Shown here: positions 1-4,096 of the stretch, piece after piece
Layout of the letters: each line of letters starts with the position of its first letter
Position numbering within the stretch: position 1 is the first letter of the stretch
Origin: a virus
Lineage: Duplodnaviria > Heunggongvirae > Uroviricota > Caudoviricetes
Strand: one strand, 5' to 3'
Virus record (IMG/VR): IMGVR_UViG_2751185973_000002
Length of the DNA stretch: 4,096 nt
Notes under the pieces: generated by a model
Databases searched by the model: none
Told to the model about the DNA's origin: nothing
Seen by the model: only the letters and a program-made list of their open reading frames with translations
Position numbers and translations under genes: made by a program

Positions 1-399
1 CAACACCCAGCGGGCACAGTTATCCGTTGCCATTGATTCCAGCCGTTCCGTGAACTGGTCACGGAGAAGATTGTCACAGTGCCAGCACAGACGGATTGCA
101 CCCGGAGCGTGTCGCATTGTGGTCATGTTCTCGCTGTGCCAGTCGGAATGAGGCCACTGGCAGCCTTTTTCACGAAGTAACCAGCTTTCAAGACATTCCA
201 CGCCACCAGCACGACGGATCACTTCCTCATTGCGGAACACGGCCCGAACGGCAGGATCATCCGCCAGCGGTTGTGATGCCGCCGGAACGGCACCACTGGC
301 GAAAGATGAATAACGCTCCGGCTCAGGCTCCAGCAGGACACGCCCCTGCATAAACAGGGGCATCAGCTCTGAACCTGGTCTGAACAATACGATCCCCAT
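1..399 (-). CDS. Partial Cys/His-rich phage protein of unknown function; 3' end lies beyond the window start, 5' start uncertain
   Basis: My own minus-strand translation is open from 465 down to position 1 with no stop: ...MGIVLFRPGSELMPLFMQGRVLLEPEPERYSSFASGAVPAASQPLADDPAVRAVFRNEEVIRRAGGVECLESWLLREKGCQWPHSDWHSENMTTMRHAPGAIRLCWHCDNLLRDQFTERLESMATDNCARWVL. Start candidates are ATG at 399..397 (no obvious SD) or GTG at 435..433 (preceded by GAGGTGA just after the antirepressor stop). It is absent from the supplied ORF track, presumably because it has no in-window stop. The C-x3-H...H-x2-N...H...C-x2-C pattern suggests a metal-binding or HNH-like module; a DUF968-like identity is a weak recollection only. 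Confidence 0.5.
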   Translation of the reverse strand, partial: MGIVLFRPGSELMPLFMQGRVLLEPEPERYSSFASGAVPAASQPLADDPAVRAVFRNEEVIRRAGGVECLESWLLREKGCQWPHSDWHSENMTTMRHAPGAIRLCWHCDNLLRDQFTERLESMATDNCARWVL

Positions 400-442
400 A
401 CGCGGGGCAATTTCAGGGGTCAGTAGTGCTCTCACGGTCACC

Positions 443-1252
443 TCAATGAACGGTATCGAGCAGCTTTAACAGCTCAGGGAATCGGGATTCGAAGAAATGC
501 GGCTGCGTCTCGCGCGGATTTGCAGGACAGGTGATGTTCTTGCCGAACATGCAGCCTTTCGCTGTCAGCGACCAGAATTTTTTGATGTTGTTAATCGCGG
601 TACGGCTGTATCGTTCGCGCTGCTCGACGATCCCCAGCTTAACCATCTGGTGATATGCCTGATTAGCCGTAAGGCGGATACCATACTGTTTCAGCAGTGC
701 ACTCAGCGACAGCGTGGGGCGACTTGAGCCATCAGGCGCGTCAGCAGGAGCATCAATGGCATAGCGCGGTGCCAGATTCGGTAAGCCAACAGCCTCCTGG
801 AGTTTCTGACAGGCACCAAGCACTGAAGAGTTAGACAGGTTTAATTCCCGGCGCATAAAGTCCAGCAGAATCACACCAGCCTGCATCTTGTCAGCAGCCT
901 GTCCGGATAATTTTTCCGGTGCGCTGGTTACCATGTCGAAAGTACGGATCACCTTCAGATGGAATGACGGGCTGATCCACATTGCATAGGCATACACCAG
1001 TTCCTTGCAGACATACGTTCCCCGTTCATTTCCCCCATGAATCATACTCACCGGGTCAACACCCAAATTCTGGGTGTTGGTCAATTCATAAACAAGCTCA
1101 ACAGTTTGTTGGCTGGAAATAAACTTTCCCGGCTCCTTGGTTCTGGCATTTGCACCAGATGCTACTGCTGCGCGATGCAGATCGTTCAGGCTGTAACGCC
1201 CATAAGCATCACGACGAACTTCAATACCATCAATGACCATCAGATTATTCAT
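443..1252 (-). CDS. KilA-N domain phage antirepressor
   Basis: The N-terminal MNNLMVIDGIEVRRDAYGRYSLNDLHRAA... is a typical KilA-N domain opening. I place the start at ATG 1252..1250 because GAGGAGA (1267..1261) sits 8 nt upstream; the track's start at 1285 is a GTG with no SD. Stop is TGA at 445..443. Product about 269 aa. Confidence 0.75.
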   Translation of the reverse strand: MNNLMVIDGIEVRRDAYGRYSLNDLHRAAVASGANARTKEPGKFISSQQTVELVYELTNTQNLGVDPVSMIHGGNERGTYVCKELVYAYAMWISPSFHLKVIRTFDMVTSAPEKLSGQAADKMQAGVILLDFMRRELNLSNSSVLGACQKLQEAVGLPNLAPRYAIDAPADAPDGSSRPTLSLSALLKQYGIRLTANQAYHQMVKLGIVEQRERYSRTAINNIKKFWSLTAKGCMFGKNITCPANPRETQPHFFESRFPELLKLLDTVH

Positions 1253-2799: not shown

Positions 2800-3620
2800 A
2801 ATCCCCCCCTGAATCCTGCCGGGATCTGGCTGTAGTCCACGTTGTCGTAACTGGCTTTGAAGTACGGGTCCTCGCGTCTGGCTGCAGATACCGCAGGAAC
2901 TTCCCAGGATTCTTCGAAATGACGATCTGGACCAAAGAACGTGACAGCCTGTTTCACAAATTGTGTGCCGCTATTGCCCATCGCAGATACCCAGCCCGCG
3001 TAGCGTTTCACACCTTCCAGCATGGTTTCGGGGTTTACCCCCTCGTTCAAACGGGCTTTCCAGGCTTTGAAGGCTGCAGATTTTGAATTGCCACCAGCAC
3101 GTTTGGGATATGCCAGCCATGCCTGCTCAAACTCCGGAGAGTATTCCGGTCGGTTTGAACGAACTCGCACGGACTCATCAACTGATGCACCAACAGCTAT
3201 TGGTTCATTGACTGGTTCTTTGACTGGTTCAAAAGAGTGACTGGTTCTGGGTGAATCTCCTGCACTACCCCTTGGTGCAACTCCTGCACTACCTGGTGAA
3301 TTTGCTGCACCAGATAGTGAATTATTTGCACTACCCCCTAGTGAATCTCCTGCACCATCAAGATGAAGGAGATAGATATTACTTGAGTTACCTTTTTCAC
3401 CTTTCCGGGTGACTTTTTTTACCAGCCCGGACTCACAAAGGGCCGCAATATGATTCATCACAGAACGTTTGCTAATCTCGCACTGGTCAGCAATATGCTG
3501 GTAGCTGGGCCAGCACTCACCCTGATCGCTGGCATTATCAGCCAGCTTAATCAGAACCAGTTTTCGCAATGGATTTCCCACTCGAATTTTCATCGCTTTA
3601 ACCATCAGCTCCATACTCAT
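2796..3620 (-). CDS. Phage replication initiation protein, lambda-O-like N-terminal HTH domain
   Basis: 274 aa. The N-terminus KIRVGNPLRKLVLIKLADNASDQGECWPSYQHIADQCEISKRSVMNHIAALCESGLVKK resembles the lambda O N-terminal DNA-binding domain pattern. A central low-complexity linker (GGSANNSLSGAANSPGSAGVAPRGSAGDSP, EPVKEPVNEPI) is encoded by DNA direct repeats. The C-terminal block YSPEFEQAWLAYPKRAGGNSKSAAFKAWKARL is of a type seen in phage replisome-organiser proteins. Strong SD GGAGGT (3631..3626) lies 5 nt before ATG 3620..3618; stop is TGA 2798..2796. Confidence 0.8.
   Translation of the reverse strand: MSMELMVKAMKIRVGNPLRKLVLIKLADNASDQGECWPSYQHIADQCEISKRSVMNHIAALCESGLVKKVTRKGEKGNSSNIYLLHLDGAGDSLGGSANNSLSGAANSPGSAGVAPRGSAGDSPRTSHSFEPVKEPVNEPIAVGASVDESVRVRSNRPEYSPEFEQAWLAYPKRAGGNSKSAAFKAWKARLNEGVNPETMLEGVKRYAGWVSAMGNSGTQFVKQAVTFFGPDRHFEESWEVPAVSAARREDPYFKASYDNVDYSQIPAGFRGGL
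3209..3247. repeat. Three copies of the 10-bp motif TGACTGGTTC next to the iterons
   Basis: Exact TGACTGGTTC at 3209-3218, 3221-3230 and 3238-3247; on the coding strand it encodes the EPV-repeat segment of the initiator linker. Confidence 0.5.
3251..3359. repeat. Five imperfect direct repeats of about 20-23 bp inside the initiator gene; putative origin iterons
   Basis: GTGAATCTCCTGCACTACCCC (3251-3271), GTGCAACTCCTGCACTACC (3276-3294), GTGAATTTGCTGCACCAG (3297-3314), GTGAATTATTTGCACTACCCCC (3318-3339), GTGAATCTCCTGCACCATC (3341-3359). In lambdoid phages the origin lies within the initiator gene in the inter-domain linker, which is the arrangement seen here. Confidence 0.55.
3361..3420. other. 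AT-enriched stretch beside the iterons; possible DNA-unwinding element of the origin
   Basis: About 65% A+T over 60 bp, against roughly 48% for the window, with a T7 run at 3414-3420. It lies on the 5' side of the iterons in gene orientation. Confidence 0.3.
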
Positions 3621-3841: not shown

Positions 3842-3957
3842 TTGCGCCCCCTTACCTCTGAAGGGTTCAGCGACAAATTTATGAGGCAGGCCAGTGCCGA
3901 AGCATCATTAATATAGTCATACAAGCTAACAGCCAGCGGAGATTCGGCTTTTGCCAA

Positions 3958-4009
3958 CTGAAGTGGTCAACAAAAACTGGCCACTGAAGTGGTCAACAAA
4001 AACTGGCCA
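3958..4009. repeat. Perfect 26-bp tandem direct repeat (2 copies, plus a partial third) in the upstream non-coding region
   Basis: CTGAAGTGGTCAACAAAAACTGGCCA at 3958-3983 and again at 3984-4009, preceded by a partial GCCAA at 3953-3957. Each unit carries a TTGACC -35-like hexamer on the minus strand, and the unit junctions form the short inverted repeat CCACT-GA-AGTGG. Confidence 0.8.
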
Positions 4010-4096
4010 CCGAGTTAGAGTTTTTCCAGTATCGATTTTCCGATTCGTTTGGGGGTAACCCACCGTTATATTCGTGCGGTCTTAGTGCGCTGTAAT

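Follow-up and report, generated by a model that had tools for sequence, protein, structure and literature searches.

A YdfU/DUF968-family gene of a lambdoid prophage encodes a probable zinc-binding N-terminal domain joined to an HNH nuclease domain

Introduction

At one edge of the 4,096-nucleotide stretch of DNA analyzed here (the window), a minus-strand reading frame that encodes a dense cluster of cysteines and histidines runs off the end of the sequence. This locus raises the questions of whether the frame belongs to a real gene, which family that gene represents, and whether the cluster forms the active site of a nuclease or holds a structural metal ion. The original prediction for this DNA had described a partial Cys/His-rich protein that could be a zinc-binding or HNH-like nuclease module.

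The gene itself turned out to be routine, with annotations across thousands of genomes as well as in SfV, cdtI, mEp460, the Stx2 phages and other phages. Of the 5,426 complete E. coli genomes, 2,420 (about 45%) carry it, and our literature search on DUF968, YdfU and PF06147 found no functional study of YdfU-type proteins. Ref, the nearest structural match to the nuclease domain of the encoded protein, underlies phage-antibiotic synergy. Gp16, a distant homologue of the same domain, is a RecA-dependent nickase that stops host replication (PMC12817073). Defining the N-terminal zinc domain of YdfU-type proteins would improve their annotation and could offer hints on how these nucleases are targeted.

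Results

The reading frame is the beginning of an intact early-right prophage gene

The window represents the early-right region of a lambdoid prophage, with all of its genes on the minus strand. The features needed to place the reading frame are as follows:

Whole window, minus strand: gene order 74-aa ORF, HTH_36/DnaD_N replication initiator, PerC, phage Dam methylase, RusA, KilA-N, YdfU/DUF968 gene
3620-2796, minus strand: replication-initiator gene (HTH_36/DnaD_N)
443-1252, minus strand: KilA-N gene, in which Pfam detects only the N-terminal KilA-N domain
433..445, minus strand: translation start region, comprising the TGA of the KilA-N gene (445-443), GAGG (444-441), a 5-nt spacer and GTG (435-433), as read from the sequence
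1..435, minus strand: YdfU/DUF968-family gene, first 145 of 329 codons; open frame with the start assigned by PGAP and an intact ORF in locus L006

The frame runs for 155 codons without a stop, from position 465 to position 1. Given the base composition of the window (52% G+C), a stop-free run of this length has a chance of ~0.002. The ORF was absent from the mechanically compiled ORF list because it extends past the window edge. We recovered the peptide CQWPHSDWHSENMTTMRHAPGAIRLCWHCDN, in which seven of the 31 residues are Cys or His, exactly at window positions 162-70 on the minus strand. These correspond to residues 92-122 when counted from the GTG at 435, the numbering used throughout. Three in-frame candidate starts are available (GTG at 441, GTG at 435 and ATG at 399). 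The NCBI PGAP annotation of near-identical E. coli prophages (L003) uses the GTG equivalent to 435, and the gene calls in six further assemblies (L005-L010) agree with it. The Shine-Dalgarno-like GAGG (444-441) is separated from this downstream GTG by 5 nt and overlaps the TGA of the KilA-N gene, a layout that suggests translational coupling between the two genes.

To follow the frame beyond the window, we used the exact KilA-N protein (1252-443), which retrieved six contigs, all with the same gene order. One of them, L006 (CP049281.1, GCA_013394535.1), is identical to the window at 4096 of 4096 bases. There the ORF reaches 329 codons and then a stop, and the gene is therefore intact; its remaining 184 codons, the HNH domain included, lie past the left edge of the window. 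Comparison with three relatives of 97-98% nucleotide identity revealed 7-9 synonymous and 2-3 non-synonymous codon differences. The YdfU/DUF968 gene is thus real, intact and under purifying selection. An exact match to window positions 1-90 was absent from a scan of GTDB representative genomes.

Much of what had been predicted about the frame held up. It is open to the window edge, its peptide is exact, and the stop or frameshift just beyond the edge that would have spoken against a long ORF was looked for and not encountered in the identical L006. The proposed placement ahead of a Q antiterminator was also borne out, as Q lies past the window edge directly downstream of the ORF. An early-right prophage context of this kind, near RusA/antirepressor and upstream of Q, is the one expected of a YdfU/DUF968 gene. 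Two details required revision: the start had been placed near 441 rather than at the PGAP start, GTG 435, and the upstream gene, named an antirepressor, encodes by Pfam a KilA-N domain protein.

The gene belongs to the YdfU/DUF968 family

From profile and similarity searches we are almost certain that window positions 435-1 (minus strand) encode the N-terminal part of a YdfU/DUF968-family protein. A full-length protein 98% identical to the product matched PF06147 (DUF968) over residues 148-314 and scored 271.9 bits (cut-off 27.8); in L006, the locus 100% identical to the window, the gene carries a PF06147 annotation. HNHc_6 (PF16784) was matched over residues 239-296, at profile positions 123-184, with 27.0 bits against a cut-off of 26.6. 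As the last residue in the window is 145, both matches fall wholly outside it. The window fragment alone, in versions of 133 and 147 aa, produced no Pfam or NCBIfam match, and it lacks a PF06147 match because that model does not reach those residues. The sole family matches of the window part came from PHROG, namely phrog_96 (whole protein) and phrog_11007 (N-terminal part alone).

BLASTP aligned K-12 YdfU with the full-length protein at 56% identity (329/349 aa, E 9e-146). At the DNA level the gene is 97-98% identical to genes in phages cdtI, SfV, SfIV, mEp460, phiSTEC1575-Stx2k and many Stx2 phages, which are annotated as 'DUF968 domain-containing protein', 'HNH endonuclease' or 'YdfU family'. 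Homologues span several enterobacterial genera and are conserved down to 22% identity. A profile of the N-terminal domain, when searched against 1.84 billion representative proteins, retrieved only 206 clusters, all of them enterobacterial-type and with the same layout or fragments thereof. PADLOC returned no match for the full-length L006 protein, and hence no evidence of a known defense system. The gene is already known, common and annotated; the mildly new point is the unmodeled N-terminal zinc domain only.

In several relatives (P0003, P0121, P0123-P0130, P0303 and P0308) the N-terminal domain is joined to unrelated C-termini, such as a Q antiterminator, a capsid-like sequence or a CxxCxGxG segment, or the protein is 400-800 aa long. 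These fusions and overlong forms probably do not reflect real architectures but stem from frameshift read-through or chimeric assembly.

The C-terminal domain is a zinc-stabilized HNH/His-Me finger

The part of the protein beyond the window ends in a zinc-stabilized HNH/His-Me finger (residues ~245-329) whose ligands and catalytic residues follow the pattern CxxC...HH...CxxH-H...H. It has a beta-beta-alpha-metal fold in which a His ends strand 1 and a His/Asn lies in the helix. Among solved structures, P1 Ref was closest, followed by YbcO; IscB, Cap5 and McrA, also HNH/His-Me fingers, were further structural matches. We assigned the aligned region to residues ~245-329 because the best targets are small and because of their sequence identities. 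Foldseek matches in BFVD were only phage DUF968/HNH proteins of 89-125 aa, which correspond to the C-terminal domain alone.

The HNH core of Gp16 aligned with residues 253-308 at 41% identity over 59 aa (E 2e-10), and every zinc and catalytic residue (CxxC, His, CxxH and H-x3-H) was matched. Gp16 and the full-length protein each match both PF16784 and PF06147. The Ref profile, PF16786, remained below threshold on the full-length protein (13.4 versus 26.9 bits, E 0.09). On sequence grounds, the nuclease half is homologous to the characterized RecA-dependent nickase Gp16.

Four conserved residues of the N-terminal cluster probably bind zinc

We next assessed conservation of the Cys/His cluster in 151 non-identical homologues. 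The residues concerned map to the window as follows:

70..162, minus strand: Cys/His cluster, residues 92-122, with proposed ligands C92 (162-160), H100 (138-136), C117 (87-85) and C120 (78-76)
111-109, minus strand: H109, at the position that a catalytic His would hold
75-70, minus strand: conserved D121-N122

Four of the seven Cys/His residues in the cluster are conserved. C92 is present in 148 of 148 sequences and C117 in 150 of 151, while position 100 is His in 139 and Cys in seven, and position 120 is Cys in 128 and His in 22. The ligand sets are accordingly CHCC (125 sequences), CHCH (14) and CCCH (7), and CCCC never occurs: replacement of H100 by Cys is always paired with replacement of C120 by His. 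Because Cys and His interchange at exactly these four positions, the pattern bears the signature of a structural zinc site, and C92, H100, C117 and C120 probably bind zinc. The other members of the cluster behave differently. H96 is kept in 112 homologues only, and position 119 (His in the window) is variable. Position 109 is His in 70 homologues, the window's own clade among them, and Tyr in 62, with Arg, Val, Ser, Thr or Cys in the remaining, distant members. Adjacent to the last ligand, D121 is found in 145 of 151 homologues and N122 in 135 of 151.

The N-terminal domain has a predicted His-Me-like topology and no profile relatives

AlphaFold2 was run on P0294, a 329-aa homologue with two mismatches to the window in its first 145 aa, using an alignment of 42 sequences of 30-81% identity. 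The model had a mean pLDDT of 88.1, with values of 91-96 across residues 91-130; the 145-aa fragment, modeled with a shallow alignment, reached a pLDDT of 46.5. Two predicted regions fall within the window:

64..126, minus strand: predicted beta-hairpin (residues 104-109 and 112-117) and helix (118-124), forming a beta-beta-alpha core (AlphaFold2, pLDDT 91-96)
163..432, minus strand: residues 2-91, short strands and helices (AlphaFold2, pLDDT 86-96) without a recognizable family

In the model, C92 and H100 precede strand 1, and C117 and C120 sit at the junction of strand 2 and the helix. H109 ends strand 1, where His-Me nucleases have their general base, and D121-N122 follow the second knuckle. 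In terms of secondary structure and topology, this ligand placement is that of the beta-beta-alpha cores of the protein's own C-terminal domain, YbcO and Ref.

Similarity searches with the N-terminal domain against Pfam, PDB, NinB and NinG were negative. When 30 diverse N-terminal domains were scanned singly, neither an HNH-clan nor any other Pfam match appeared over residues 1-159 at E<=5; the sole Pfam signal in these regions, at residues 160-189, came from the start of the DUF968 model (positions 1-30). PDB sequence searches with N-terminal domain profiles gave no match, or noise at E>0.6, and a Foldseek search against the PDB returned nothing with E<0.9; the Foldseek output, which gives no residue ranges, assigned the domain no structural neighbor. 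Profile-profile comparison by hhalign was insignificant against the protein's own C-terminal domain (P 0.29), against YbcO (P 0.19 over nine columns), and against each of Gp16, NinB and NinG. Our search of viral contigs for YbcO relatives, from which a DUF1364 profile was to be built, yielded only sequences of 97-100% identity. The comparison with the C-terminal domain being insignificant, an origin of the N-terminal domain by tandem duplication is unproven.

The window therefore encodes a separate N-terminal domain (~residues 1-190) that is absent from Pfam and whose first ~160 residues have no domain model. We classify it, on the predicted structure, as a zinc-binding domain of His-Me-like topology and not as a member of the HNH family. 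As H109 is not conserved, no profile links the domain to HNH proteins and Foldseek gave it no PDB neighbor, a structural zinc module is likelier than a nuclease active site, and we lean toward a non-catalytic domain.

The proposal of a zinc-binding or HNH-like motif in the original prediction thus survives in part. Its suggested search against DUF968 and HNH families was productive, since the full-length protein matches PF06147 with 271.9 bits. The Cys/His cluster does look metal-binding, but the HNH match, at residues 148-314, lies outside the window. Among the Cys and His residues listed, C92, H100, C117 and C120 proved conserved, whereas positions 96 and 119 are variable and position 109 is either His or Tyr in most homologues. 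A beta-beta-alpha fold is predicted for the motif, as an HNH-like fold would require, but the catalytic His is not conserved and a link to HNH profiles was not found.

Additional features of the prophage

Other parts of the window and its relatives provided further observations on this prophage. The KilA-N protein gave a weak, short PADLOC match to the candidate defense family PDC-S22 (E 1.8e-5, 37 residues). Inside the replication-initiator gene, positions 3251-3355 carry several imperfectly matching direct repeats of the form GTGAATCTCCTGCAC(TACCCC), 24-42 nt apart, and a 12-nt tandem pair is located at 3201-3224. The repeats at 3251-3355 are iteron-like and, by analogy with the lambda ori inside O, may mark a replication origin inside the initiator gene. 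At the Dam/RusA junction (1658-1661) the two genes overlap directly, without the 327-nt 'LexA family' gene that intervenes between Dam and RusA in cdtI, phiSTEC1575-Stx2k and many E. coli prophages.

At ~3958 the early region gives way to an IS3-like element, which is annotated as ISEc52-family in E. coli, and in L006 HTH_Tnp_1 and rve genes adjoin it. The tip of the element carries a 26-bp tandem duplication (3952-3977 and 3978-4003). L005 and L007 are each one gap away from the window (99.3-99.4% identity over 4096), and this single gap may fall within the 26-bp repeat. Q appears split in L006 (5810-6204), where it is represented by ORFs of 64 and 105 aa without a gene call; it is intact, at 126 aa, in L005, L007 and L008. 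The split Q together with the IS insertion suggests that the prophage is defective.

Within the YdfU/DUF968 gene, the differences from the cdtI and Stx2k relatives are mostly confined to ~20 bases right after the CWHCDN codons. Window positions 60-80 read CTTCTCCGTGAC, and the cdtI and Stx2k relatives read CAGCTGCGCGAT. At that same point, P0068 and P0070 switch from an N-terminus of the YdfU-like clade to the clade of the window. The stretch may therefore be a mosaic recombination joint between prophages.

Discussion

On balance, we favor the view that the locus encodes an intact two-domain YdfU/DUF968 protein, with a non-catalytic zinc domain at its N-terminus and a nicking HNH domain at its C-terminus. 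C92, H100, C117 and C120 would hold one structural Zn2+ on a treble-clef/His-Me-like scaffold, and the domain so formed would bind DNA or a partner protein and thereby target or regulate the C-terminal nuclease. A targeting role of this kind may be played in relatives by a NinB-like domain (Gp16) or a basic disordered segment (Ref). That the N-terminal domain is probably not itself a nuclease follows from how freely Tyr and other residues take the place of H109. On the model of Gp16 and Ref, the C-terminal domain would probably nick recombination or replication intermediates, for example RecA-made D-loops, early in lytic growth, and the enzyme may act alongside the neighboring RusA resolvase. 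RecA dependence specifically, suggested by this analogy, is the more tentative element of the scheme, and we consider it somewhat doubtful.

The alternatives differ mainly in what they make of the N-terminal domain. It could be a cryptic second copy of the His-Me finger that has degenerated, which would make YdfU-type proteins tandem 'pseudo-dimeric' HNH enzymes; we regard this as unlikely. If it were true, the N-terminal finger, whether inactive or, in the H109 clade, active, would recognize branched DNA or the RecA filament and position the C-terminal finger, a tandem-finger architecture not described for the Ref/Gp16/YbcO group. Another alternative has the Cys/His module as a second active HNH-type nuclease site, with H109 as the general base, D121 and N122 binding the catalytic metal, and C92, H100, C117 and C120 holding a structural zinc, so that the protein would possess two nuclease centers and both strands could be cut. 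The predicted beta-beta-alpha topology is consistent with this, as H109 falls precisely where strand 1 ends, and the CxxC at the junction of strand 2 and the helix; D121 (145/151) and N122 (135/151) are almost invariant, the window's clade retains H109, and by eye CQ-x6-H...RH...CxxC-D resembles the CQ-x6-C...AH...CxxC-H of YbcO. Against it, position 109 is Tyr in 62 of 151 homologues, K-12 YdfU included, and R/V/S/T/C in distant members, the 30 diverse N-terminal domains gave no HNH-clan Pfam match, and the hhalign comparisons with the C-terminal domain and YbcO were insignificant. We therefore judge an active second site to be quite improbable.

Since the C-terminal domain is homologous to that of Gp16, and Orf-like N-terminal domains occur in the superfamily (PMC4118853, PMC12817073), we also considered a NinB/Orf-like recombination mediator fused to the HNH domain. 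This candidate was rejected and has very little probability left, as the hhalign comparisons with NinB and Gp16 were blank and only the HNH part of PF16784 is matched. Least credible of all is a pseudogene remnant or chance ORF in which the Cys/His cluster is an accident of composition. The degraded state of the prophage, with an IS3-family element abutting the early region and Q apparently split in L006, would fit such a remnant, but homologues down to 22% identity and the low chance of the open frame (~0.002) speak against it, and the intact 329-codon L006 ORF and the excess of synonymous (7-9) over non-synonymous (2-3) differences refute it. The two-domain protein with a structural zinc module thus remains our preferred reading.

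How does this protein compare with known systems? Both DUF968 and DUF1364/YbcO have been placed in group 7 of the His-Me fingers, and a neighborhood of RusA, Q and antirepressor genes has been described for DUF968 genes (Jablonska et al., 2017; PMC5714182). Orf-like N-terminal domains have been reported in the HNHc_6/'DUF968' superfamily, in Gram-positive proteins and phiNM1 Gp16 (PMC4118853, PMC12817073), and other family members are fused to Erf, Rad52 or RusA (PMC4118853, PMC5714182). Gp16 of the Staphylococcus phage phiNM1, described in 2026, is an early protein with a NinB-like N-terminal domain and a 'subclass 6' zinc-finger HNH domain; it is a RecA-dependent nickase that favors phage growth and blocks replication of the host (PMC12817073). 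Like the window gene, its gene is an early one near a RusA gene. By contrast, its N-terminal domain lacks a zinc site and is unrelated to that encoded in the window, and RecA-dependent activity, which has been shown for Gp16, extends to the window protein only by analogy. P1 Ref (PDB 3PLW, PF16786) is likewise a RecA-dependent HNH endonuclease (PMC4330346, PMC3973344), but instead of a folded zinc domain it has a basic, disordered N-terminal segment of 76 residues (PMC4330346).

YbcO of the E. coli prophage DLP12 (PDB 3G27, DUF1364) has been assigned to the treble-clef His-Me fingers (PMC4999995); it consists of one domain of 96 aa and showed no statistical similarity to the window-encoded domain. 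Lambda NinG/Rap (PF05766), a His-Me endonuclease of branched DNA, occupies the equivalent nin-region position shortly upstream of Q (PMC5714182); it belongs to a different Pfam family and has no detectable similarity to the N-terminal domain. The closest counterpart is K-12 YdfU of the Qin prophage (b1560), whose gene also lies directly upstream of a Q-like antiterminator. YdfU has 349 aa, including an insertion of 20 residues between the two domains, in the linker, compared with 329 aa for the product of the window gene, and it has Tyr in place of H109 and Asn in place of H96. The two proteins have in common the two-domain layout and all four proposed zinc ligands, C92, H100, C117 and C120.
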